DNA from: Ophelia neglecta
Lineage: Eukaryota
Assembly: GCA_965285935.1 (NCBI GenBank)
Contig: OZ260665.1
Span: 27,280,001-27,344,000, forward strand
DNA length: 64,000 nt
Reading direction: 5' to 3'
In this document: positions 6,181 through 63,772 of the stretch, one piece after another
Numbering within the stretch: the stretch's first letter is position 1
Layout of the letters: each line of letters begins with the position of its first letter
The notes under the pieces: model-generated
The model's database searches: none
What the model was told of the DNA's origin: nothing
The model's input: the letters and a program-made list of their open reading frames with translations, nothing else
Translations under genes and position numbers: made by a program

Positions 6181-7480
6181 GCACACGGGCAGGCACAATG
6201 CCCTGGTATGTACAGACAGGCACAGGGACAATGCCCTGGGACATAAAGAAAGGCACAATGCCCTGGGATTTTTTTAGATGCAGAGAAACAATGCCCTGAG
6301 ACATACAGACAGGCACAGACACAATGCCCTGGGCCTTAAAGCAGGCACAATGCCTGGCACCTACAACAGGGCATGAAGCTAATTGAAATTTACAACTTGC
6401 CCTCTGGGCAAGTAAATAAACTTTTTAACTTGACTTCCCCCAAATTTGCTTGCCCAGGGGCTAGTTACATGTAAAACAAACTTGCCCAACTGAAAATCTA
6501 GTTGCCCTAAATTAATTTGACCCAAATATGCTAGATATCTTTAATATTCTAATTCATAAATAAGGCATATAATATAAAAGTTTAAAAACTACCATCACAT
6601 TCATATTTATTTATTTTTCGAAGTTTACATGACAGGAAGTAAATTGGGTGAAGGCCACTTCCTCCCCCTCAAAGTCAGAGCTTTCAGAATAATAATCTTC
6701 ATCATCAGATTGAGAATCTGTTTGCATCTCCTCCTCCCCATTAAGCTCCGATTAGACAGTTAGATTCAGGTTATAGCAAGCTTCCTGCTCAAACTTCGAT
6801 TCTTCTTCGCCTTCGTCTGTGAGGCACGAAGAAGTATGGCGTCTGCCCTCTGCCGGACCTACTTTCGTAGTGTAGCAAGGCGCGGGATGGCGCCGGTGAC
6901 TAGGCTTCAGTTGCAACGCTTTTGCTGCGATACTGTCATACATGCAGCGACCTGCCTAACTTTCACCCAGTCAAAAAAGGCGTCCAGCGGTAAATGCTGG
7001 CCTCGGAAAACCATAACTTGCCCGAAATTTAACCCAGTAACTGGCCCCCGCTGCTGTATTAGCCCGGCGGACAAATTAAGTAACTGATCAGCTTGCCCTG
7101 CGCGAAAATAGCTTGTCCCGGGCCAACGGGATAGCGGCAATTTCGTGCCCTGTACAAGCAGACACAATTCCCCAAAACACACAAGCAGGCACAATGCCCC
7201 AAAACACACAAGCAGGCACAATGCCCCGGAACATACAAGGTGTATGATTTATTGGATGCACAGAAATAATGCCCTGGGACATACAGACAGGCACAAACAC
7301 AATGCCCTGTGCCTTAAAGCAGGCACAATGCCTGGCAGATACAAGCAGACACAATGCCCCAAAACACACAAGCAGGCACAATGCCCCGGTACATACAAGC
7401 AGACACAGTGCCCCGGTACATACAAGCTGTATGTGCTTGGCACAATGCCAGGCACATACAAGCAGGCACAATGCTCAGGG
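6181..7480. repeat. ~27-bp minisatellite (ACAAGCAGGCACAATGCCC...) interrupted by a transposon
   Basis: Many CACAATGCCC units at 6181-6366 and 7153-7480; higher-order duplication 6271-6360 vs 7250-7340. Confidence 0.9.
6367..7152 (-). mobile_element. Non-autonomous DNA transposon (786 bp), CAGGGCA(T/C)GAA termini, 5-bp TSD TACAA; hAT-like (hAT5-type by TSD)
   Basis: Left end CAGGGCATGAA at 6367, right end TTCGTGCCCTG ending 7152; TACAA on both flanks; subterminal CTTGCCC repeats at both ends; acidic ORF remnants and AATAAA on the - strand. Confidence 0.8.
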
Positions 7481-7721: not shown

Positions 7722-8241
7722 CCCGGGGGGGGTACTTCCTATATTTTAGGGTGGGGGTGCTCCCCGCAGCTTTGAAAAAGGGGGTCATTATGATAGAAAT
7801 TCCTCGAAAAAGATACCCATTTGATAGAAATTCCTCGAAAAAGGTACCCATTTGATAGAATTCGCGGGGTTTTGCCGTGTTGTATGTATTGTGAAATTGA
7901 TCCACTTCCGGTGCCGTGCGTTGCATTCTGCCGTAGCACTACTCGCACTTTGAACAAGAACGATGAAGTAGTTTTCACAACTTCACAATTCACAACTTGT
8001 CTGGCAAGTTTTTACGATCTCACCGTCTGATCAATATGATAGATTGTAGAGAAAATTAGACCCTTTTGATAGACATTCAAATGTGATGACCCATTTGATA
8101 GAACAATTGTGAAAAAACTACCCATTTGATAGCATCGTTGTGAAAAAGATACCCAATTTGATAGGGAAAAATTGGTGAAAAAGATACCCTTTACCGCGGA
8201 GCATACCTACTATGGCCATATATGGGAGTACCCCCCCCGGG
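7722..8241. mobile_element. MITE (520 bp) with CCCGGGGGGGGTACT TIRs and 8-bp TSD TCTGGCAC
   Basis: TCTGGCAC at 7714-7721 and 8242-8249; ~24-bp imperfect TIRs; internal ~31-bp TACCCATTTGATAG repeats. Superfamily not resolved. Confidence 0.9.
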
Positions 8242-13997: not shown

Positions 13998-16900
13998 GTA
14001 GGTACTTTATCATCAGTTTATGAATACCTATTAGTGATGTAGGATCATAAATGTTTCTATATGTATAATTCTATCAGTGTTTGAAGTTTATGGTGAGGAA
14101 TTTGTGATGGTTTGTGATGCCCTATGATGAACTTCATCAATACATAGCTGCATTAAGTCCATCCCTTAACATAAGCTGCAGCATCTGGTCCACGCCTGAA
14201 TGGTGAAAGCATATTGTTGTTATAAAAAGCTGTGGCTCATCCATATGTTAATAGATATTTGGAAACAAAGGTGGTAGTGTTTTCCACTTTTCACCACAAA
14301 GGTTGTGAATCTATGTGGGAAGGTTGGCCTAGATTTGACTCAGGCATGCCCGAGAGCCCTGCAGCTCCTTGCTCCTACGTCAGCTATCTTGGAAAGTGTT
14401 CAGAAACGCTATGAGACTGTATTAAATTTCATTAGCTGGCTGATGGGAATCTGACAAGCAGACTACGTAGATCTACGCAAATCTATTTTGACCCAAAAGC
14501 ACACCGCTTCAAGTTGCTCCAAGCTTCTTGTGAGGTTCAGGGTGTGTGTAAATTTATACAGTGTGGCTAGTTTTCAAACTTTAAAGTTGGATTCCCACCA
14601 TCATCATACCTCAACGATGAGCACAGTGATGTGGATTCCTCCAGGAGGAGTTGTTGGACCGAGAATGGTCAGTTTTTGTTAATTTTATTTATAATATTCA
14701 CCACCCTCTAACAGTAGTTGTGCCTATCACTCAGAGAAGTTAGCCTGCCTAAAGCGCACCCGCAGCCATATTGATGATGTTGGCAGTCATGTGACTCTAA
14801 ATATAGCCGAGGAACTACCACATGTGCAAAGCATGGCCTCTAACATGGCACTTAGCTTCCAAATATCTGGTGATTTTACAACAAATATCACATCGTAGCA
14901 TTGCGACATTTCCTCTTAGAATATGGCAGTTATTGGCAGTTTCATCAATAGTTCTCTCTGAAGGCATAACTGATGTGACTATTTTTCCCTTTATCATAAT
15001 CTGTCATGGTGTCCTGATGGTTCTCCCAGGAACTGAAGCTCCTCCGAGGGCCTAGTTCAGGCTCTGATGATGATTTATGTCAGTCTCAAGCATTCTCACC
15101 CTTTCATTTTTGATGAGAATTTATCTTGCTTGTAGACCTGCTAGCCTAATCAATCAACTGAAAATTATCAACTTAGCAGTGCATGTCTGCACGGTTTAAT
15201 AGCAATGTGCGTTAAGTAGCCCTCATGGTGTTACATCAATTTAGGATATGTTAAACTTAATATCTGTCTCAATTGCTTTATGGTCTCATCCATGTGGCTT
15301 TTTATTACAATATTACAAGCTATTTTATGTTATAAAGATTTTGTTATTTCCAAGCGGCATATAAAATAATCAGATATTTTATTTGTAAACATCTTGTATA
15401 TTGAATAACAATGTTCCTCTTGTGCCAGATGTTAGAGAAAATCAATTGATGTATTAACTGTGTGTAGCCGTTCATGCATCAGTGGAAATATCTTCAGCAG
15501 AGATCGATGCTCCAATTATAATTCATTGCATTGTGTATGGGATCTTCCACCATCTGTTTTATACCATTTTGTAACTTCATGTTACTCTTTAATGAATTGT
15601 TTTTATGTAGAAAAATAATATTATACCAATGTTTCCTTATGTAATAAGATAAGTTAAATTTACAAATTATGTGATTTTATGTGAAAATGAAACAGAGTGT
15701 ATAAAAATTTAGGGAAATGTGATATTTGTGTCTTAGTCTATACTTTAGTTCAGAAATGTTTGTGCCAACCAATTCTACAATCAGAGAACATAACAGTATC
15801 TGGGAATATAGTCCACAAGTAGACAGAATATTGGTCCCTGACACTAGATAAACTGTATATTTTTATGCATGTTCACTATAGTACTTCAGTTCCTCATTTA
15901 TTTAATATAAAGACCCTAAATACCGTTAATACACAAGTAAGGCATAGTTAGTCCTATTTCAGTGTGCTATTTAGTGCAAAGCTAAGCAAAACAGTCAGTT
16001 TGTCAGGAATGTGTACCTGAGTGCTAAATTTTGCCATTACTCTGCTAAAGGCGCTATTGATGACCCGCTTGCTTGAATTGAACATCAGCCGGAATCTCAT
16101 CTTTATTCATGTCACATTCAGTTAAGAAGCCAGGTATGCTTAATGCCTAATTCTTAGGGAAATATAGACAGGGTGTGGGTTGAAGATGCAATATTCTCCA
16201 AGCACTGGACTATCCAAGGTCCATCTGACTGGCTTTTTTACCTGCTAATGGACTTAATGTATCAATTTCTAATTTGTGTGTCCATTAGAGAAAGCTAATA
16301 TGGAGTTATGCTGACACATTTTAGAGACATACCTTTGTGTTCCTGTAGAAGGCACCGGGCCTGTATTCATCATGGTATTATTATTAAGCGTTACTGGTGC
16401 AGGGTTTACCATATCTTGGCCAGATTCTTGTGTACTGTCTGCCTTGATGGACATGGTAGCCTAGACCAATAGCTGTGTACAGGCCATATCCCTGCTTTAT
16501 TGTTATCAGGCTCTTCTCTTTGACACTGAGGTAGCCATAGGCCTGGACTCTAATGCCATCTCTTACTTGTGGATTCCACCCAGTTTCCATGGCAACCACA
16601 CTGGCAGTAGGAGCCAGGTTGCCATTCTATGGTGTTTTATTTTGACAGATGTGATGTGGGTTTATCTTTGGGCCTCTTTCACCTCTCCTTCCACGGACTT
16701 CCAGTCTCAGAGGCTGAGAGCACTTCTACAGCCTTCTTTGTCAAGTTTAATGTATGATCTGTGTTATTATCTGAACACCACTCACTCCAGCAAGCTGATT
16801 GTAGAGAGTGATACACTCACTTGGGTAATCAGCCAGAGTCTGGTAAACAACTTACAATCCTGTAATTACTCTCCTACTAGACAAAACAGCAAATATGCAA

Positions 16901-38200: not shown

Positions 38201-41200
38201 AGTGAATTTGGGGAGTCCTCTAGCTTATTAATTCTCTACTTATCTGCTCTTGTTAACCTCCGGAGCACTGTATCACTACCATTTAATCATAGGTGATTGG
38301 CCCAAAATACCATTAAGGGAGTATTCATGGGTTTTGTATGGCCTTTGACTAGGCCACACTCGTCTGGCATTTAGACTAGTCGTAATAAGAAGCCTGGTTC
38401 TCCTGAGATGCCATCCTTTATCCAAGAGCAGTGCTGCCAGAATGAGGGCAGCCGCTAGGCAGGTGTTCATGGCTAGATTGTTTCTTGCCTTAATGTATAA
38501 CAGGCTGACAGACTACAAAGGAATGAGCAATGAAGCTTCTGCAGGGACATATCTTCCTGGCCTTACTGGTCTAGGGGTGAGAATATCTCCAAAGCCAGGG
38601 CCTTGCTACCAAAGCCTTTAGTGCCTACTATGTTTTAGTCTGATCCTGTTGAAATGTGCAGATCTCTCAGCCTCAGTTCTCAAAGCACCTCCTAACCATG
38701 AATACACAGAAGGAATCTTTAATGTTTGGTTGTTGTGGCCTGGCCATGCAGCACTGTGTACTCATAATGTTAGCCTGAGTGCCTGAGCAGTGTCTTTGCT
38801 CAGCCAGAAAACATTTGAGGTTGTATGTAGCATGGGCTTTGTATTTGACCCTGTTCCAGGGCTGCAGCATTGAGACTTCGTCCTTGTTGCATATGACTCA
38901 TCTGTTCAGAGATGGACTCATCGATTCTGAGCTTCCAATCTAATTACCCCTATGTACAGTAGTGGCAACTCTCAGCATGGACTTGTGGGGCTGCTGATAT
39001 TTTCAACAGTTCTTATCCTCAGCAGCACAAAGGGATGTGTTGAGGAGGAAGAGGGGAGCAATCCAGGCCAATTACTGCCTGACTGACCACTCCGATTGCC
39101 TCCATTTTCATCAATGTAATGACCTTTTGTGGGAGGAGACAATATGGTATCTTGATTTGGACTGGAGTAATCTCTTGGTATATTTTGGTACAAATTTCAC
39201 TTATGGTAACAGTGAGTTAAGATGACGCAGGATGATATGCACAGAGATGTCCATTATCAAGCACACAGAAATGCCTACTTGAATTCTCGTCAAGCAAAGG
39301 CTGTGAAAGAGAGGTCATCAGAAAACTTCAAGACTCTGGCAGTTACTATAAGTACACAGGGAATTGGAATCAGCAGAGAATAGTGGGCAAGATCGATTTG
39401 TCTCTGTCCAGTAATTTTACATAATTATGTTTGCTTTTGCCCCGTATTTCAACAATCAATTAGGAAATATGCAATTGTGGCAGGCCAGTTGCTCTAATCG
39501 CCTGTGTGCCCCTCCTCAGCTTCTGACATTTGCTTCAATTTGGGACTATGACTTGGCAAATTCCCAGTCAAATTGGCCAAGCCTCACAGGAGAGCACTTG
39601 CCCAGAATGGAGATAATGAAGGGCCTACATACACAGGCTGTAACCAACTGTCTCAACAGTTTATTAGGAAGGAAATTGGCAATTCTGCCCCATGCAAAAT
39701 GATGAGATTGGGTTTCAGTCCACCCCCGCCTCCCTAATCCTCCTGGCCCATTGGCTCCTTAATCCTCCTGCTGGTTCCTCCTGCCATCATAATAGCCTAT
39801 TTTGAATTTAATTTCTGCTTCATATGCATGAAAAAAGTGTTTCTACCCTTAAACTGCAATGGTTTAATTAATATTTTTATTAAACATGTACAAGAAATTT
39901 AGTTGATATTATATATGTATTCTTAGTATTTTTACCTTTGTATTTCAGCAATTTGGAAACATATTAGATGTAGAAATTATATTTAATGAGCGAGGTTCAA
40001 AGGTATGTTGACAGCTAAACATTGTCCACCCATCTGATTTTGGAAGTGGAGATCAGCCGATTCACACAGACCTAATGATCCTAGTGAATCCCCTATCTTG
40101 TCGTTAAATATCCCATATCAAATTTGCAATCAAATGTGACATGTAAATTGAACAAGCTACCATTTGGCTCTTCAGAAAGGCTCAATTAATATTTGACAGT
40201 TAACTCAAGTAATTGATGATGTTTTCCTGAAAAGTGTGGTGGTATGAGGGTGATCTCCATTTCCTGTGCTAATTGTATTATTATTTAACTTTTGCGATAA
40301 TTTATCTAAGCTGCACTGCATACAGTAATCCAGTATGTAGGCTATGCAGTCTCTTTTAACATTAGAATTATGATACACATATTTTTAATCCATAAATGCC
40401 ACTATGATAACTAGTTAAATGTTAATTAATTTCTATGATAACAGTGGCAAATAGTTAGAGGTATAATGGAATTGTATATAACAGAATACACCTAAGCCTA
40501 AGTCCCATATGTGGTGCCATATTTTTTGTGACTTTATGTTAATTTTGGCCAATCTGAGATTCATAGCTCTAAGTGTCATGTATTCATCACTCATTCCTAA
40601 GCCATTCATGCTCCAAATATTTCAACTTTCCCTCTCATTATGAGTCTATGTCTATCTCTGCTCCCTATCTGTTATTTCTGATTTCCCTGACACAGTATTA
40701 TTTGGGTACAAAATGACCAGGGTCTGCCCTCACAATCTCTTTTGTGCTTCTCCGTAGAGTTTAGTAATGACAATTCTATAAGTTTCTTGCTGGCTGATTT
40801 TCTGTAGTGACTTGTCTTTCACTTAGTCTCACTGCATCGTAATCCTTGCTCATTTACTATCATGGCCACACAGTGTAATGAAAATTTGTATAGTAAAACT
40901 CTATTTTCACACTAAAATAATATAGACATTCATTGAATGATTGAGAAACATGTAAGAAGGAAAAGAAGCAATTTCAAATACATTGCCTAAAGTGCTGGTC
41001 TTTATTAAATAAAGAACCATGAGTAATGAATTAAATACATTCAGTAAATGATGTTGTTGGCCTAGTGCAACGGGCTTGTGAATGAGCTCGGATGTCCCTG
41101 TCTGACTGGAATGACGTTTGACACTCTATTTGTTTGTGGCTTGTGTCTGGGAATGAGATTGACCTGTGAAGTAAAGTGAATGCGAGCAGTAGAACACTGG

Positions 41201-44200
41201 TTAGATGGTCATGTCTGTCTCTATGTAGATCATCTTCCTTCAGTCTCCCCCTCTGTATCATCTCAGCCCTTCTGCTCTCGTCTGCTACATCCAATCTCTC
41301 CCATCTTTTCCCGTGTGTAGGCTCTTTGCAAATTGTTATGCACATCTATTTGACTTGCTTGTAGAGAATATATACGTATATATACGTGCCTTCTGATAAT
41401 GTATGGCATTCTGGCCACATCTAGCGCCACCTGTTTACCACTAGACTTCATTTCTGATACAGTACTTCCCATTTGATTAACTCAGGATAAGAGGTGATGA
41501 TACCCATGATTACAACTGTAAAGAGATAGGGCGAGGGATTGTATCATTTTCGCAATGTCTTAACCGCCCTAAGCTAGAATTTGTTAGATGCAAGTCAGTT
41601 GAGAAAATGCTCTATCTCTCGGCTGAATACCAAGGTGATTATGAGTAGTAAATACAGTGGCATATTTGTACAATTCATTTGCAAGGAGCTTTCACAGTGT
41701 CTTTAGTTTGCCTTCCGTTATATTGCAAAGTGACTCACATATAACTTGCACCACATCGGGGTTGATACAATGATACGTTCTGTGATGTTGGGTTCGTTCT
41801 GTGTCCCGTGTCTCTCCTAGCTAGTACACCTGTCTCTACGTCTGTCTGTGTTTGTGTGGCTTAGGAGCATGGGGAGCATGCTAACCGACACATGGCTACC
41901 ACCGTCTCCTTTACAGCAGAGCAGCAACATAGCGCATGAGCCCGTCTCTCTCCTTCTCATTTGTCTCATGCTACTGTAATCAACCATCATGTAATCAGAT
42001 CAGAAAAATGCTCAAATTCACCTTAACAATTAAATGGTAATCTGTGATAATCTATATTATACTATATCAATTTCAAAATATGAATGCATGTGATCTTTTC
42101 TAAGGATCATATACATGCTGTGTTTCGTTGATCTGCACGTATTTAATGCATGCCCCTTATTTTCCCCTTATTTGCATGCAGGGATTCGGTTTTGTAACAT
42201 TTGCAAATAGCGCCGACGCCGACAGAGCACGTGAGAAATTGAACGGCACAGTGGTTGAGGGACGAAAAATTGAGGTGCATGGTTATTTCCATATGTGGTA
42301 GCACATACACTAAATTGCTAAGTTATATTTATATTGTGCAGTATTAAGAAATGCCTGTGTACTGTTCAAATGTCTTGTCACCTCCATATATATATATATA
42401 TATACATATTTGCATATTCTTCAAAGTTTTCTCCCGACCAATGATATGATTGTCCGATCAATGAAATTCTAAAATCAATGCTTTCACGATGATGATTAGT
42501 GTATGCCTTCCCGATGTTAACTATTTAGAGACTGTGCATTTTGGTTTACATGTTGTACCAAACTTTTATCTGTATCCAGCTGATAAAGGAATGTGGAAGG
42601 TTTTTGTAACCAATCCTAAAATAAGTTTCCAAAACTAAAAGGAGATTGTAGTATTAGAAATTAAATAATCCTTCCATGTCCCCTTATAGCGTTTTGTATC
42701 TTCAGTCTGCAAATGCCCCTTTTGTATATATTAGAATTCAATTTCACCGCCCCTCCCTGCATAATGATTTGATCGTAATATCCAAAAAAAGTTGAGCTGC
42801 ATAATCTCCCTTTGAATGCATTCAACATTATTAAATGTGTATCATCTGCATTGGCATTTCTTGATGCTGAGTTTTTTTTCTACAATTTTTATTGATGTAG
42901 TTTGGCTTAGATTTTTTTGTACATAACATTGTACATAATGTAGTAGGCCTTCATAACAAATAACATTATGTTGAAAGCTCGCAGACACCACCAAATCTGG
43001 TTCTTGTTTCATACCCTGTATAGCGAAAAAGGCCAAACCGCGCTATTACATGACTCGTAAATATATCGGAAAAAGATGAAATAGTACATCTGTAGGTAGG
43101 TGAGACAAATTCTGCCAAATGTGAATAACCCAGAGACATCTCGCCACATTTTCCCAAGAGTGCTGTGTCTCATTCAACAGCAATTCAAATAGGCTGTTGC
43201 CAGATAAATTGGCCAATGCCAGACTAGTAGGAATCTTGCTATTTGAAATATGATTGTAATAACTAGCATGTGGTGCAGTACTGAAGAAAATTAAAGGTGC
43301 TGGACCACTAGATCAGGATCATATGTTATGTCTAAAGTCATAAGTTGACTGTTTAGTGCTTGTGAAAGACCACAAAATATGTATGGTTCCTAATAGGATA
43401 AAACATGATCAAAACATTACTACAATTAATACACAAGTTGTTACTGAGCAGAAGGCTATTGGTAATGTTGTGTGGACATGACACATCTGCCCCTTTGTGT
43501 GGACTACTCAATACATCACTGTGTAATTGGAAAAAAAGGTGTTGTCACCTTCAAAGACTTTAGATATGACAAGCTGACGTAAATCAAAACTGAAAATAAG
43601 AGATTAAATGACACACTGTATCAGTGTTTTGTTGTGTGTCAGACACTGCCCCTGTCAACTTCTTGAAAATGATTTCTGAAAGCCTTAGTTAAACATAGAA
43701 CTGCTCCATGGAAGCACTAGACTACAGATACAAAGGTACATGTTCATATACATGTAGTTTTGGACCAGGGCAGCACTATTTGAATTGCTGACTGTGCTTT
43801 TGGATTCATTATAGCTTTAGTACGTAGTAGACTTACCAGAATAATCAGTTGTTCAATCCTTTGACAAAAATTAAGCATAAATCAGAAGGTGTCTGGCTTT
43901 CCATTGTGTTTCAAAGTTTCAAAATTGATGGTAGTTTATTGTTCATGTGTAACTTTTGATGGCAAACATTTTGGATCAGTGCTGATCAGTGCAAATAAGA
44001 AGTCATCAAGTTTTAGTTTCAAAATTGTGGGTTAAGACGGGTATTATTTCTTCACATGAATATTGCTTTAATCAGACAAGATTTGTCTCAAAGTGCTGCC
44101 AGTGATCTGAAGTGTTTGTCCATACTACTATATGCTAAAGAAGATGGTGAACCTATTGTTGAGATATTGAACTTCATTCTTTATCATTTTGTCCACTTAG

Positions 44201-47200
44201 AATTGTGGGGGTGAGAATTAACACTTAGCATTTAATGATTTTATAAGCATACAAAAATTAAGAAAAAGAAACCCTAGAAAACAAGAAATTCATGGACAAT
44301 TTCTACAATTGAGGTTCAGCATGCTTTTTAGCCAACTGTATCATCCTTATAGATTTACAGTCAAAATATGGTTCATTGTATTTCATGACATTTCTGAATA
44401 ATGTGATTAGGATATGTGTGTAATTATGTAAGGACTAGGTTTTAATGGACTTCTCAGATAAACAGTTATGTATATATTTGTGCTGTAAATAGTAAAGTTT
44501 TTCTCAAGTAGTATCATGATAAATTATTCATCTTGTAACTTGCAATTTAAGTTTTTAAAATCAAGATAAGTTTCTTTCCATAAATTGAATGCAATGACCC
44601 ATTATATTCTTAATACTAGAGAAAGCATACTTTTATTATATAATTGGTAAAAGAGGTATTATATTCTTGTCTTTGAAGGTGTTTTGTACTTACATGTTGT
44701 AGTTGTATATCAATAATTGTGAAGTGGCCATGTTTTGACTGTAACAAACTGATTCATATCTTTGATAAAGATTGGGTATTTTCTTACTTCGCTTATACCA
44801 TATGGTTAACAAGCAATCCAACATTTTTAGGCAATTATATTTAAGAAGTTAAAATATTGAAAGCTTTCATGAAATTAATATTTGAAAATAATATTTATAT
44901 CAGTGAATATGCAATATACCTGGTATTTTAAACATGTAGAACTTTACTGCATGTATATTGTGAATTTCATATTATTAGGACCACTGGGGTTATCCAATAT
45001 GCAGAAAATTTAAGCTACATTTCTTGTCCTTTTTAACTTGTCCGTTTGTGTTATGAAAGGTATGAATCAATAAGGATAAATTGTATCTGCTTCCCAAATA
45101 TATCTGACCCTGGTAAGAACAAGTGCTATTTTTTACCTTCTAATGTCAATCGGATGCATTTATTGTTTGTAGGAATAAATCGAATATGGATTTGTGCGAT
45201 CTTGCAAAAAAACACTGTTCAAAGGGTCTCATATCTTTGGTTAAAGTACATTAATGTAAATCACTGCTAGGCCCACGACTTTTTTTATGACACTGTATGT
45301 TTTCCATTGATAGGTAAATAATGCAACAGCTAGGGTTATGACAAAAAAAGCAACCACACCGGGAGCCGTGGCTAACGGAGAACTTGGTAAGTACCCAGTA
45401 TGCCTCTCTTGGTAGTGGGATTACTGTATCAATATTATAGCACACTGGTTGGGCTCTAGGATAGAAAATTATTAAGTCTTTGGAAGCATCCGTTTCACCT
45501 TTTTCTTTCGTGTGATTGATAACACTTTCACCCGGTGAAAGCATCACTCCCAGGCGTAAACTACAAAGGCCTGTGATTAGCTGGTGAAGTGTTCATCCCG
45601 TGTTCCGTCACCTAGGGACACCTCCCTTCACCTCCTCCATTAACGGACCTACATTGTCCTTGACTGAGATGCGTTAGACTGCAAATCTCTGCCAATGTAA
45701 ATCACAGGATTTGCTATTTCCACTGAAGCTTTATCCCTTTGGGCCCCTTGCTTTAATTTGACCATCTGCCAGAACAGCATGTTTGTTACTGCCAGTGGAA
45801 ATCGATCTCCTTCACCTTAGCCACAGAGACCTAAATAATTTACACACTCCGCAGCCAACTTTCTCCTGGGCTGGCCAACGGTGAAAGCAACAAGTTATTT
45901 TATGTGGTAGGCCCCTGGCTACTGATTACCATGCATGTAATGAAACTTTTTTCCATTTATCAAAGTCTGTGGCATGTCAGATATGGGTTTGTTAATTAAA
46001 GCAAACTTATTGTTTCCTGCAGCTACCACAAGTGTATGAGGACAGGGCCTGTCCTTCAGATTAGCTTTGTTGCTCTCTGGTTTCAATAGTAACAGTGTGG
46101 CATGGTCGCTTAAGGTGTAAAGGTGCATCCAAGTCAAATCACTCATGTACGTCACTTCAAAGAGATGTCATGCACTCAGCTCTTATGGTTCATTATCTGT
46201 TATGGAGTATTATTTATGGCACATATAAATTTAGCCACCTGAAAATTTAAGTGACCCTAGTATAGTCCAGAAGGGGGTATATGTTGATCTATGTGCTTCT
46301 GATCCCATTCACTGCTGGGTCTCCTATATCATAGATGTATCAAATGGCCTCATTGTAAAGTATAATAGCAGCTTGGAGCCACCCAACACCCGGCTTTACA
46401 CCTTATCTCAATAGCAATGTATGCAGGGAATCCATCTTTATGTCTGACCTGCAAAAAAATACCACAGCATGTCTGTAGGAATGTGAGTGATTGTGTTCCA
46501 TCCTAAAGGGGTCTCAGTCAGCATAATAAGGACATACAAAGGGCTCCTATCAGTCTGTCTACTGCAGACTTGTATCTGTCTGTCTCAACCAGGACATGGC
46601 CGTTGATCAATTTTGACCATATTTTATAAATGTAGAACAGTATATAGATGAGCAGGTGTGTGTGAACCAGTAATGTATCAAACCATGTCTTTTATTTTAT
46701 AATTCACAGACCCGTCAATTGATCTGTTTCATTCCTCAGCTGCCGCGCTGAGAGGCGCCGCATTCACTAGGGGGCGAGTACGAGGGCCGTACCCGACTGC
46801 CGCAGCCGCCGCCGCCGCCGCTGCTGCTTTCAGACAACCCACACCACTCGCCACTCATCCAACAGGCTTGCCATATGCAACGTATGTATTCCCCGCTGAG
46901 AACTTCACTTACCAGTACTTACTACTTGGCAGGAGTACATTGAATGTTATCAAGTGTTACTCTGTAACTAGTAATACATCTACCCTCCCACACAAGTCAG
47001 TACAGAGAAGTATATTGGTGTGAAAATCAAAGGAGCCTTTTAGACATACAAGCTGTAATTAACCACTTCTAAGTCTATAAATATATAGCCAACTCTCCTC
47101 CATGTGATCAATATATCCCAATTCACATTGGATACCCACATACAGCTATATGTAACTGTATGCCTAGGGCCATGGATTTTGGTTTGTTGGTTTACAAAAC

Positions 47201-50200: not shown

Positions 50201-52716
50201 GAAGCCACAAAGCTGGCACAGTTGACAGATACTCACTAGTCATTTCTCAATCTGGTCTTCTCCACACTAACACATTGAAACTAATAAATTGATACTATCA
50301 GAATTTCTGCCTGTCTCATTAAGCTTATATCTTATTTTTAAAAAAAATTTTGAAGATATAATCAGATGAAATTCATGTCTACTATTAGCCTAAATATAAG
50401 GGATAGTTGAGAAAAGGACCAGACTGGAAGTTTCAGTGTGTATCTGGATCACAAGGTGAAGAACTTTACATCTTGGCTTGGTAATTTTGGCTATATTGAC
50501 ATATGGAAGAGTCCCCGACGGACGCAGTGATTCGGGGTTTATTCATACATTGACTTACAACAGTCTCTATTTATACTACTAGCCCTTACCATGCAACAGA
50601 CCTCCCTCGCTAAGTAAGATCGCATCCTGCCTGTTTTTGTCATCTTTATCATCGTTCCTGGCATCCCTTTTGATCGCTAACCAATCAGGAAATTGTGCCC
50701 TGAATTAACTAAATTCTAAAATAACCAAATTTAAAGCTGCTAGATAAGTGCTTCAGATAGTGACACACCCTGTGAGCACTGTTGATGGGGAATGAGTTTC
50801 ACCTTTTGCGCATTTTAAGTATTTTTCGTGGTGTATATATTTGACAAGGCATGATATTCCTACTAAGGAACTCTCCGTGTCTAACCGGGTGGAAGGTGTT
50901 TTTGGACATGGTAACTATGCTAGAAGTAAGACCAGTTGATAGTGCATTTGACACTGAATACAAGCTTGGAGTTTTTATCACCCTGATGCTAAACATGGAA
51001 TGTTTTCTAATTAGTATAACTATGGTTTTCTGTTAAACTATTTATTATCAGTTTTAGTTTTATTTTCAAATAAAGAATAACATTTTAAAGCTGGTAGTTA
51101 TTGAAATGATATATAGTAATTGAATGATTTACTAACACTGCATGTTTCAACACAAAATGTAGTTCATAAGATGCCAAATTTTGCACTGTATTGGCAAGTA
51201 AAGATTTTCTGAATGATATTGCATCATGGATATTAAAAGTATGGAAATTACCTGTGCATAACATTAATGTGTTATTATTGTACTTTACCTGAGCACAGAT
51301 TGCATGTAGATGTTATTAAACTCGTAATTGTATTTCGCCATGGGTAGTAGTTCGATTACTGCACTGAATGTTTGCCATGTTCGATGTGGAACTGTTATAA
51401 CCACTCTCCTCTACATGTGGAAGGACTCTTTTCAGTTTACTTTGTTTCTGTTGGTAATGGTGTTCAGTTGACAATTTAGCAAAAATCAATCCGCATCTTC
51501 CGACCAGTCAAACCTCCAATTTCCTCTCCTCCCCCTTTGCCTCACCCCTCTGATTCTAAAATTAAGCTATGTTAAACACTTTTCGAAAGCCACCAGTTAT
51601 TTTTCTTGTCTTTCATTTCTCCTGTTGCTTCTGTTATTTTAACTCTAACCCTCTTTGCCACCCTGAGTTTGACACTTTCCCTGTACTGCCGAGTTCTGAA
51701 TTAAGTTTGACGACTGCCGTTCCAACCAACCAACCAATCAACATATATATTTGTGTGCCCCGATTCCTCCCGGCTTTCTCCATGGCTGGCGAATCCTATT
51801 TGAATTTGCGACTTGCCGAGTTTCTACTCACCTAATAACAAAGTTTGAGTGCATCACATGGCCAATCCGGAATTCAGTGCATACTGACGACTACCGTACC
51901 ACATGCAATTGCAATTTTTTAACCATGTAACCAGTTTTTAGTTATTTGGTTGATTCTATGTTGTGTGCAGACTCAGGCATGGAGTGGTTGATTTCTGACT
52001 AACATTGGAAATGTTTTCTCCTAAATTTGCAGCGGTGCTGTTCTTTCCAGTTATGGGGGTCGTGAATTCGCAGCTGATCCCTACATAGGACATAGTATTG
52101 GCCCAGTGAGTGCCTATGGGGTAAGTTTGTATGCATAACAACTTCTGTTTCATTGAAATTATTGCTAAATGATTACTTGTTGAGCTGTTCTGTAGGCAAT
52201 AGGGTTACAATTGGCAAGTAGAATTAAAAAAAAAAATAGCAAACACATTCTACAATGTAAAGCATTCTTAACAATGAGAAGATCTTACTGCTCTGTAATG
52301 AGTTGGTAATTATCTACATGGAAAATGTTAGACTTGTTAGTGCCTGTCTCCTCAAAAATCATTGTATAATACAGTCTTCCATTCAAACGGAAAATTGCTT
52401 ATCATGAAATTGAATTAGAAAGGATGGTTACACTGCTGATGTGACAAATTAGTGATCACCAGTTACAAGAGCAATAAGAGTAGGAGGCTATGGGCAACAA
52501 TTTTTCAGGAGAAATTGGCAATAGCAAGCAGTCTAAAAGTATTAGAATTATCAATGTTGTGGTACCTGTCCTGTTTTTATCTCTAAGCCTTTTTGATTTA
52601 CTTTCCAGCAAACTCCTACTGCTATTCAGTATGGAATAAATACTAAGGCTTCACTTGGCTTGCCCTTGCAGGGTGCGGTGTATCGAGCCGGATACCAGAG
52701 ATTTGCCCCATACTGA
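31998..52716 (+). CDS. RBFOX1: RNA-binding protein Fox-1 homolog (Rbfox/A2BP1), spliced CDS of 10 exons, 315 aa core isoform
   Basis: Join 31998-32201, 37794-37925, 39949-40002, 42182-42274, 45314-45386, 46740-46881, 47893-47944, 49962-50044, 52051-52120, 52672-52716 totals 948 nt, is open, and all introns are GT-AG. It encodes [14 protein letters not shown]...[57 protein letters not shown] (diagnostic Fox RRM) and ends YQRFAPY*. Invertebrates usually have one co-orthologue of RBFOX1/2/3. Confidence 0.97.
34037..34275. repeat. 17-bp minisatellite (AGGCCAGGCAAGGCGTT)n in an Rbfox intron
   Basis: More than 10 imperfect tandem copies visible. Confidence 0.92.
37794..37925 (+). CDS. RBFOX1: Rbfox exon with RRM RNP2 (QTDLECES...[24 protein letters not shown])
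   Basis: Branch-like gctaac, ttcttgcag acceptor, GGG|gtacat donor; conserved Fox RRM start. Confidence 0.96.
39949..40002 (+). CDS. RBFOX1: Rbfox 54-nt RRM exon ([18 protein letters not shown])
   Basis: tatttcag|CAA...AAG|gtatgt; same boundaries as in vertebrate Rbfox genes. Confidence 0.97.
42182..42274 (+). CDS. RBFOX1: Rbfox 93-nt RRM exon containing RNP1 ([31 protein letters not shown])
   Basis: tttgcatgcag|GGATTC...GAG|gtgcatg; 93 nt, homologous to the skippable vertebrate RRM exon. Confidence 0.97.
45314..45386 (+). CDS. RBFOX1: Rbfox exon, end of RRM ([24 protein letters not shown])
   Basis: ttgatag|GTAAAT...CTTG|gtaagt; conserved [10 protein letters not shown] motif. Confidence 0.96.
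46740..46881 (+). CDS. RBFOX1: Rbfox C-terminal-domain exon ([21 protein letters not shown]10[17 protein letters not shown]); alternative in-frame acceptor at 46710
   Basis: ttcctcag acceptor, AC|gtatgt donor; RGxxxRGR motif of the Fox-1 C-terminal domain; poly-Ala at 46799-46828. Confidence 0.92.
47411..47677 (+). mobile_element. 5'-truncated SINE, MetaSINE-like
   Basis: GGTACTGATAGCTCCCCTGCCAGGCGC...CAGGACTG...GTCAGTATAAT resembles the Meta central domain of molluscan tRNA-SINEs (recalled, not searched); 3' tail ...AAAACCCCAACCAACAAACCAACC. Confidence 0.55.
47893..47944 (+). CDS. RBFOX1: Rbfox exon ([17 protein letters not shown])
   Basis: T-tract + cag acceptor, CAG|gtaaga donor; VYQD motif conserved in Fox proteins. 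Confidence 0.92.
49962..50044 (+). CDS. RBFOX1: Rbfox exon ([28 protein letters not shown])
   Basis: tgcttttttag acceptor, GG|gtatgt donor; Ala/Tyr-rich low-complexity C-terminal domain. Confidence 0.9.
52051..52120 (+). CDS. RBFOX1: Rbfox exon ([23 protein letters not shown])
   Basis: Branch ctgactaac, ttctttccag acceptor, GGG|gtaagt donor; AADPY motif. Confidence 0.94.
52672..52716 (+). CDS. RBFOX1: Rbfox terminal coding exon ([14 protein letters not shown]), PY-NLS
   Basis: cccttgcag acceptor; the RFAPY C-terminus is the established nuclear-localisation signal of Rbfox proteins. Confidence 0.96.
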   Translation, partial: GAVYRAGYQRFAPY

Positions 52717-60475: not shown

Positions 60476-61129
60476 CTAAAACCGACAGGAGCAGCCAGCT
60501 CGTCCCTTGGACGAGATCCCACAGCTGCACGCCGCCGCGCCCCTTGCAACCACCGCCCGAGAGCTGCAGACGTTCACGCGGGGTTGTGGAACCGGTATGT
60601 TGTTTTGGCAACGTCGGGGCCGACATCCGCCGCTTGATCGAAGGGGCACACCGCAGGCGCCGTTGCAACCAATCTTGCCACAGCCGCGGCAGACACAACC
60701 TCCGTTGCAGCCACGTCGTCCGCATCCGTCACAGGGTCGAAGGCCGCAGCTACCAGGGGCGCAACCTCTCCTACCACAGCCGGAGCATGGCGAGGGGCAG
60801 TCTCCCGCGCATCCCTTGTCTCCACACCTGTCACAGGGGCGGGGGCACGTGCCGTTGCAGCGCCAGCTGCCGCACCAGGCACATGTCCTGGTACGGCATT
60901 CGCCGTGGCAGTCGCTGCCATGACAATAATTGCACTCGCCGTAGACGGGAGGGCAGGCGGGGCCATACTGGACGGGACTATCATAGACCACGTGTTCTGG
61001 TTCCTCGTACACAGACCTGCGAACCACGACATCGTAGTCATCCCCACCGCCGTAGTAATCGTCTCCGCCGCCGAATAGACCATCCAAGAATCCCCTCCTT
61101 CTGGGTGGCTCGTCGTAGTAGTAGGCCAT
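60476..61129 (-). CDS. Uncharacterised 217-aa Cys/Gly-rich protein: Tyr/Gly/Asp-rich N-terminus and six C-x2-C-x4-C-x3-C modules
   Basis: GC-rich coding-like ORF with a splice acceptor (ggttttcgtttcag) immediately before the ATG; 32 Cys; no hydrophobic signal peptide. Confidence 0.85.
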   Translation of the reverse strand: MAYYYDEPPRRRGFLDGLFGGGDDYYGGGDDYDVVVRRSVYEEPEHVVYDSPVQYGPACPPVYGECNYCHGSDCHGECRTRTCAWCGSWRCNGTCPRPCDRCGDKGCAGDCPSPCSGCGRRGCAPGSCGLRPCDGCGRRGCNGGCVCRGCGKIGCNGACGVPLRSSGGCRPRRCQNNIPVPQPRVNVCSSRAVVARGAAACSCGISSKGRAGCSCRF

Positions 61130-62807: not shown

Positions 62808-63010
62808 GTAGCCCATAGTTTTTATCGTGATTTATTGTTTGACTTGTCACGTGTCCTGGAAGTCGTAGTAGTCGTAGCCTACTGTTTATCCTTGTGATTT
62901 ATCGTTTGATTTAAGGTCACCTGTCCTGGAAGTCGTAGTAGTCGTAGCCTACCGTTTATTCTCATGATTTATCGTTTGACTTGGTATCACGTGCGCTAGT
63001 AGTCGTTGTA
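62808..63010. repeat. 70-bp tandem repeat spanning the stop codon and 3'UTR of the 258-aa gene
   Basis: TCAC...GTCGTAG units recur at 62847, 62917 and 62987. Confidence 0.85.
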
Positions 63011-63772
63011 ACCGTAAGTGTTGCGCCTAGGGGCGTAGTCGTAGCCAATACGAGGGTTGTAGTGGACATCACAAGGCCCTGGTTCGGGCTCGTCGTAGTC
63101 ACAGCCGTGGACCTCACAACAGTCGTCCTGGGGCGGTGGCAGGTACCGAGGCTGGGATCTTACCCGGGGCAAGGGCTCGTAGTCGTTGTCACACCCGTGG
63201 ATTTCACAGCATTCCTCCTGGGGCGGTGGGAGGGGCCTTGGCCGTGGTAGGGGCCGTGGCTGGGCACGAGGTAGCGGCCTGTAAACCGGCTCCAGAGCGC
63301 AGTCGCAATCATCAAAGTCTTCATCATATCCGTAACCGCCCCTGTCGTCATCACAGCCGCACCCACCACCACGACCTCTTCTCCGGCAAGAGTCGTTCTC
63401 ATCCCTGCACTGGCACTTCCTCCGGGGTGCGGGCACTTCTTTGTAGATGATTTCTGGCTGCGAAGGCACTTCTTTGTAGATGATTTTTGGCTGCGAAGGC
63501 ACTTCCTTGTAGACGATTTTTGGTGGACAGGGCTTCTCGACCACCACCACATTCGTCTCTGGTGGAGGTTGGGGAGGGTGGAGGACCACAGGTGCTGGGG
63601 GCGGCGGTTGGTAGACTACCGGCGCTGGATTCTCCTCCCACACAGCTTCGACCTGGGGGACAGGCCGGGGCTGGAGGACCTCGACGGACGCGGGATCAGG
63701 CTGGTCGCTCGGTAGAAAGTGGTAGTCCGATCCCCGATTAGGGTTGATCGGAGTCACCTGGTGGTACGCCAT
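62996..63772 (-). CDS. Uncharacterised 258-aa Pro/Cys/Tyr-rich repeat protein (MAYHQVTP...; 3x KI(V/I)YKEVP-type repeats; 2x PPPQxxCCExHGCD)
   Basis: The true start is probably ATG 63772, directly after the acceptor gttacccttcacag; the 14 extra N-terminal residues in the ORF track look intronic. GC-rich coding bias; no signal peptide. Confidence 0.85.
   Translation of the reverse strand: MAYHQVTPINPNRGSDYHFLPSDQPDPASVEVLQPRPVPQVEAVWEENPAPVVYQPPPPAPVVLHPPQPPPETNVVVVEKPCPPKIVYKEVPSQPKIIYKEVPSQPEIIYKEVPAPRRKCQCRDENDSCRRRGRGGGCGCDDDRGGYGYDEDFDDCDCALEPVYRPLPRAQPRPLPRPRPLPPPQEECCEIHGCDNDYEPLPRVRSQPRYLPPPQDDCCEVHGCDYDEPEPGPCDVHYNPRIGYDYAPRRNTYGYNDY

Follow-up and report, generated by a model that had tools for sequence, protein, structure and literature searches.

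The Rbfox gene and its 93-nt exon

The window, by which we mean the whole 64,000-nt stretch of DNA analysed here, contains an Rbfox gene whose coding span of 11 coding exons extends from 14617 to 52716 on the + strand. The exons were mapped by tblastn with 11 homologs, a few of their boundaries being off by 1–4 nt, and the exon at 14617 is likely the first coding exon. Four of them are central to the analysis:

37794..37925, + strand: RNP2 exon, placed by the tblastn mapping
39949..40002, + strand: upstream RRM exon of 54 nt (QFG...ERGSK), donor of the predicted skip junction
42182..42274, + strand: 93-nt cassette exon, phase 0/0, 31 aa (GFGFVTF...GRKIE)
45314..45386, + strand: downstream exon (VNNATARV...), acceptor of the predicted skip junction

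The 93-nt exon encodes RNP1 and the second half of the Rbfox RRM, covering positions 40–70 of the 70 positions in the Pfam RRM_1 profile. All three junctions, i.e., the upstream end at 40002, those of the 93-nt exon, and the downstream start at 45314, lie in phase 0. Because both neighbouring exon ends share this phase, a skip junction from 40002 to 45314 is in frame. A preliminary description of this DNA had given the same exon identity, frame and junction coordinates, all of them correctly. At E ≤ 0.001 the exon has a single match in G000 (six candidates scored), and with one genomic copy the gene is its own likely regulator.

The RRM is identical to that of human RBFOX2 at 71 of 79 residues, and seven of the eight substitutions presumably fall outside the base-contacting residues; the K142 position varies widely among invertebrates. 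The top PDB matches of a close homolog (P0006) are Fox-1 RRMs (including 2ERR), namely those of RBFOX1, RBM9 and ASD-1. From this identity, the window protein would be expected to bind (U)GCAUG. The C-terminal segment (encoded at 52675–52716, + strand) ends in YQRFAPY-stop and fits the R(F/Y)xPY ending that we take to be the Rbfox nuclear localisation motif. The Pfam Fox-1_C profile gave no match in five of five spiralian proteins or in the three C-terminal exons of the window. The best single-domain matches are annelid-like, with Paralvinella at 84% over the RNP2 exon, and those of nemerteans and molluscs come next; we therefore call the animal annelid-like.

UGCAUG motifs on the splice signals

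The exon is flanked by ...tttgcatgcag/ at its 3' splice site and /gtgcatg at its 5' splice site (slash, exon boundary). Four TGCATG copies on the + strand had been described earlier, and their positions were confirmed; the TGCACG at 42134, a fifth candidate Rbfox site, was absent from that description.

42085..42090, + strand: distal upstream TGCATG at −97, located by sequence
42134..42139, + strand: TGCACG (GCACG class)
42147..42152, + strand: TGCATG at −35, directly after the branch-point candidate TTAAT
42173..42178, + strand: TGCATG at −9..−4, between the pyrimidine tract and the CAG of the 3' splice site
42276..42281, + strand: TGCATG at +2..+7, overlapping the weak 5' splice site GAG/GTGCAT

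The donor GAG/GTGCAT matches the consensus at five of nine positions, compared with seven for the donor of the upstream exon and again five for that of the RNP2 exon. By consensus, A42146 (−36, within TTAAT) is the best predicted branch point, and the candidate is kept across species; other YTNAY matches lie at 42131, 42159 and 42170. The only AG between 42147 and the exon is the acceptor itself. The adjacency of the −35 site and this candidate had gone unmentioned previously and was found here. Among the 11 mapped coding exons, only the 93-nt exon has a GCATG in the 45 nt before it or the 14 nt after it. GCACG is described as a primary Rbfox motif in bioRxiv 10.1101/840272.

Clustering of the hexamer was assessed separately. 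The window holds 63 copies of TGCATG on both strands against 64.4 expected, so that the motif is not enriched. Thirty copies lie on the + strand, and four within 200 nt arose in 0.27% of 200,000 random placements of 30 sites. Since a count of four in 200 nt is matched by 65 of 1179 hexamers with similar frequency, many of them in repeat-rich stretches, the clustering alone is only moderately unusual. The decisive signal is the position of the motifs on the splice sites, recurring across phyla.

Conservation across animal loci

Comparison loci came from a scan of metagenome contigs, for which the search pattern covered the final 11 exon codons and the GT that follows; it yielded 58 loci. This coding-sequence pattern is blind to intron motifs and misses divergent exons. 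Of the 59 loci including the window, 16 were dropped (11 intronless on both sides, three with an upstream intron only, two cut short), and the remaining 43 collapsed at <90% flank identity to 28, i.e., 27 other loci and the window. Loci were assigned by their neighbouring exons and nearest named proteins. As they are related by descent, the counts below are not independent and P values overstate independence.

GCATG occupies the 3' splice site (−8..−4) in 17 of the 27 other loci, 15 of which carry the exact TGCATG, and none of 20 neighbouring 3' splice sites used as controls (one a near duplicate) has the motif. TGCATG at +2 or +4 of the 5' splice site was found in 21 of the 27, compared with 0 of 18 neighbouring 5' splice sites. 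Between −60 and −10, GCATG occurs in 16 loci, in nine of them as TAATGCATG, and all three positions are occupied together in 14. The distal −97 GCATG recurs at equal distance in L036 and L048, and the mussel-like L035 has one at −111. TGCATG anywhere in the flanks was present in 22 of the 27 loci but only 59 of 719 background tiles, and TGCACG in 7 of the 27 vs. 14 of 719 tiles. Next to the 93-nt exon, intron conservation with the window reaches about 100 nt into the upstream intron and 85 nt into the downstream one, and was not seen at the neighbouring exons; the length of 93 nt and the frame are kept in every locus seen.

These counts bear on whether the exon could be constitutive in this species, with motifs that are there by chance or as a relic. 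The expected overall frequency of TGCATG in the window would suit such a reading; TGCATGYAGG occurs 3556 times in G000, a count that is uninformative without annotation. However, the motif positions are conserved against 0 of 38 control splice sites, and the short intronic words are intact while the spacers between them vary, which points to ongoing selection. We therefore regard a constitutive exon as very unlikely.

Three DNA-like contigs from one sample, possibly the source of the assembly, show 15 substitution sites in 5.9 kb and no difference across 41741–42807; these sites are too few for the gap to count as selection. The three contigs contain no exon joints and, being DNA, have no bearing on skipping. 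Farther upstream, 20 of 20 nt at 41314–41333 (+ strand) are identical to L048, at a similar distance from the exon (E 0.016).

Motif register, losses and fused exons

The 5' motif occurs in two registers. The +2 register, /GTGCATG, is found in the window, in annelid-, mollusc- and bryozoan-like loci, and in the vertebrate Rbfox1-like L017 and L055. The +4 register, /GTGTGCATG, is found in ten loci, all of them arthropod-like, although L013, L014, L029 and L052 were so assigned on the 31-residue exon alone. Because it is common to spiralian and vertebrate loci, the +2 register is suggested to be ancestral.

Five of the 27 loci have neither splice-site motif: the tunicate-like L008, the vertebrate Rbfox3-like L045 and L054, and the unplaced L021 and L040. 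L006 lacks only the 5' motif. In the chelicerate-like L028 and L059 the downstream intron has been lost and the exon is fused to the next one; the motifs are absent as well. L008 was considered as a non-bilaterian outgroup and rejected, as it is tunicate-like instead (29 of 31 residues identical to Clavelina). In L003 the 54-nt, 93-nt and next exons are all fused, and the intron after the RNP2 exon is kept.

Protein models lacking the exon in relatives

Protein models from other animals include forms without the exon. Among 120 listed of 281 spiralian-enriched homologs, at least nine join ERGSK directly to VNNAT, while 82 include the exon, 26 are without the junction and three show other arrangements. 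A query with the junction itself retrieved 1555 proteins, and all 120 of those listed lack the 31 residues; this query selects for skipping and thus indicates where the form exists, not its frequency. The listed sources are Paralvinella, bivalves, gastropods, Opisthorchis, spiders, ticks, a scorpion, horseshoe crabs, insects, hagfish and jawed vertebrates. Among 150 listed of 642 representatives, 29 skip and 90 include the exon, 17 differ otherwise and 14 are without the junction. Priapulus, Lingula and Limulus join the sources of skip forms through this set. Overall, database isoforms lacking exactly these 31 residues come from seven phyla.

Most of the skip forms are NCBI 'isoform X' models, a type that as a rule draws on RNA-seq evidence. 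The models from Paralvinella (P0002, the only annelid skip model), Potamilus, Pinctada and Opisthorchis could represent missed exons, the annelid and flatworm entries being single hypothetical proteins. In Watersipora the exon is included in five of five isoforms, though bryozoan-like loci carry the motifs, and in a sea cucumber it is included in the representative as well as in all three full cluster members that have the junction. Skipping persists in vertebrate Rbfox3 (PMC3575530; P0223, P0272 and others), whereas Rbfox3-like loci are without splice-site motifs, and hence skipping does not need these motifs. A further model, P0119 from Elysia crispata, has seven extra residues between ERGSK and GFGF, perhaps from an alternative acceptor or a microexon inside the RRM.

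A probable negative feedback switch and its alternatives

The 93-nt RNP1 exon of this annelid-like Rbfox, with motifs on both splice sites and beside the predicted branch point, probably acts as a negative feedback switch by which Rbfox would repress its own exon. As Rbfox levels rise, the protein would occupy the −35, −9 and +2 sites of its own pre-mRNA. Occupancy at −35 would hinder recognition of the branch point by SF1 and later U2, at −9 that of the tract and AG by U2AF, and at +2 pairing of U1 with the donor. Exon definition would then fail and 40002 would be joined to 45314. The skipped mRNA, being in frame, should escape NMD, and its product would be without a working RRM, so that active Rbfox would fall. 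Repression of an exon by Rbfox bound upstream of it is documented (PMC5840707), and the earlier statement that mammalian Rbfox proteins repress their own homologous exon agrees with the published record (PMC2777236, PMC3126832, PMC11874969).

Whether the protein lacking the 31 residues would be dominant negative or merely inactive or unstable is about evenly balanced. The same self-repression might serve as a plain off switch, its product inactive or quickly degraded and no source of dominant-negative protein, and we put the chance of this somewhat below even. In chicken, the Rbfox3-d31 protein is broken down by the proteasome and does not activate splicing (PMC3575530), which favours an off switch, as does the lack of a Fox-1_C match in the spiralian proteins and window exons noted above; given that lack, the C-terminal contacts needed for dominance remain putative. 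On the other hand, the delta-RRM proteins of mouse Rbfox1 and Rbfox2 are described as stable repressors (PMC11874969). The constancy of 93 nt and frame in every locus, with the same skip product in seven phyla, also fits selection at the protein level, an argument that is weak because the RRM sequence itself constrains exon length.

Alternatively, Rbfox might mainly stall removal of the upstream intron, with an unproductive intron-retaining RNA as the main product and clean skipping a minor one. Four of the five candidate sites lie on the 3' splice site side, and vertebrate Rbfox2 also makes NMD forms around exon 6 (PMC3126832). One contig, L025, is spliced from the exon to the stop codon and still carries 72 nt of the upstream intron, both motifs included, but it is a single contig end and may be an ordinary splicing intermediate. 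As in-frame skip models are common in molluscs, a brachiopod and arthropods, retention as the main outcome appears improbable.

Further intronic elements and RNA structure

Two additional conserved elements lie downstream of the exon:

42298..42304, + strand: GTAGCAC, conserved downstream element, found within +24..+60 in eight other loci
42330..42357, + strand: conserved downstream block ending GAAATGCCTG, 28 of 28 nt identical in L033 and L058 and 27 of 28 in L036

The loci bearing GTAGCAC include the insect-like L002 and L044, and its core TAGCAC is present in 7 of the 27 other loci vs. 18 of 719 background tiles. GAAATGCC was found in six other loci (annelid-, mussel- and bryozoan-like) compared with 3 of 785 background tiles. 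Neither GTAGCAC nor GAAATGCCTG was seen in the four vertebrate loci.

Three other roles for sequence around the exon were rejected. The GCCUG in the 42330 block was considered as a secondary Rbfox site, a weak proposal, as this word lacked CLIP enrichment in bioRxiv 10.1101/840272. An alternative 3' splice site in the same block (CAG/TATTAA, Tyr-stop) reads CGG in L036, and no stored protein ends in this way. A cryptic poison exon of 117/120 nt at 41917–42036 would include a stop, but related loci show no match to it. The surrounding stretch (41855–42036, + strand) has GCATG at 41867, 41876 and 41934. These surround a CTAAC and an acceptor-like CAGCAG, after which comes a donor-like GTAATC.

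The conserved words could in principle act through RNA pairing or another protein, and not through Rbfox. TGCATGCA is self-complementary and the upstream element might pair with the downstream block; the duplex of −60..−21 with the 42330 block reaches −16 kcal/mol in the window, and four close loci give values of −12 to −17. However, this duplex is lost in the mussel-like L035 and beats 95% of shuffles in only two of eight loci, and pairing with the block in context amounts to between 0 and 0.44 pairs. Folding z-scores never fell below −0.7 in 11 of 11 5' splice site regions and six of six whole cassettes, the probability of pairing between the 3' and 5' splice sites is about 0, and Rfam returned no match. 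The conserved word is, moreover, exactly the Rbfox motif, which takes two registers at the 5' site. The folding, in-context pairing and Rfam results do not support RNA structure as what keeps these words conserved, and action independent of Rbfox is very unlikely.

Comparison with known systems

Mammalian Rbfox2 exon 6 and the equivalent RRM exon of Rbfox1 were reportedly the subject of Baraniak 2006 and Damianov and Black 2010, and the abstract of the latter is said to describe Fox sites flanking the fly exon and motifs that overlap the splice sites. The mammalian exon is an orthologous, in-frame RRM exon of 93 nt and 31 aa with the same layout of UGCAUG; in Fox-2, three copies lie upstream and one downstream of exon 6, which is skipped on Fox-2 overexpression (PMC2777236). 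Self-repression of the mammalian exon 6 is repeated in PMC5577181 and PMC5538552, and the delta-RRM protein is described as stable and dominant negative (PMC11874969), although its fate differs between vertebrate paralogs (PMC11874969, PMC3575530). The vertebrate Rbfox1-like L055 matches the window with TGCATGCAG/ and /GTGCATG and has its upstream site at −38. The window differs from mammals in having one Rbfox gene instead of three paralogs, and therefore no cross-regulation, in a C-terminus without a Fox-1_C match, and in the extra GTAGCAC and GAAATGCCTG elements.

Chicken Rbfox3 has the same 93-nt exon and the same in-frame deletion in its d31 isoform (PMC3575530). In contrast to the window, its UGCAUG copies are located downstream, with a predicted activating role, the d31 product is unstable (PMC3575530), and the Rbfox3-like L045 and L054 differ from the window in lacking splice-site motifs. 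The calcitonin/CGRP exon 4 offers a parallel for the −35 site, in that a UGCAUG at −34 beside its branch point blocks SF1 (Zhou et al., via PMC2777236); it is, however, a heterologous target with a second, exonic site and no feedback on the regulator. Among protostomes, the RRM exon of Drosophila Rbfox1/A2bp1 is the equivalent alternatively spliced exon (PMC3126832, which names it alongside Rbfox1 and Rbfox3), and similar autoregulation of C. elegans asd-1 is cited as unpublished in PMC2777236. The ten loci with the +4 register look arthropod-like, whereas the window carries +2. bioRxiv 10.1101/2025.10.28.685214 concerns C-terminal 40/43 exons, and with the terms searched PMC8742874 yielded no passage on the 93-nt exon. 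A literature search, largely confined to papers outside subscription journals, found nothing on this exon in annelids, molluscs or brachiopods.

Ancestry and significance

Regulated splicing events common to vertebrates and invertebrates are rare. The preliminary description had proposed that the feedback loop is ancestral to bilaterians. An ancestral origin is directly supported by the occurrence of the layout in spiralian-, arthropod- and vertebrate Rbfox1-like loci and of skip forms in seven phyla, but the evidence reaches back only to the protostome–deuterostome ancestor. As no xenacoelomorph, cnidarian or sponge was identified among the sequences, the loop is at least as old as that ancestor, with no upper age given. 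The claim of ancestry is itself not new, since PMC3126832 already names the Drosophila equivalent. The feedback loop and its conservation between vertebrates and fly, implying ancestry, are in print, and the known picture is unchanged. New are the extension to Spiralia, the 5' motif shifted by 2 nt in arthropod-like loci, several losses and the two extra intronic elements.

A tentative scheme, which we hold to be doubtful as a whole, would combine these observations. The protostome–deuterostome ancestor may have locked all three core splice signals with Rbfox motifs, including /GTGCATG; arthropods would then have moved the 5' motif by two bases, and the lock would have been dropped in several lineages. 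The spiralian GTAGCAC (present in insects too) and GAAATGCCTG might mark an as yet undescribed second regulator or RNA bridge that sets the feedback threshold.

The cis code of this splicing event appears to be kept in all three big bilaterian branches, Spiralia being the branch missing from the searched literature. A single-copy gene removes paralog cross-talk, which makes an annelid or oyster a clean system for asking whether the loop originally served to make a dominant-negative protein or as a plain off switch. Natural variants, i.e., the shifted 5' motif, the losses and the fused exons, map which sites matter.

Other features of the window

Downstream of Rbfox, two intronless-looking ORFs lie on the − strand, both with products starting MAY. 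The first (60476–61129) encodes 217 aa rich in Cys and Gly, the second (62996–63772) a Pro-rich product of 258 aa with CC pairs, and neither has a Pfam match at E ≤ 0.1. Short tandem arrays with periods of 17–81 nt occur at 1217–1631, 6190–6370, 7154–7427, 7774–8189 and 34084–34274.
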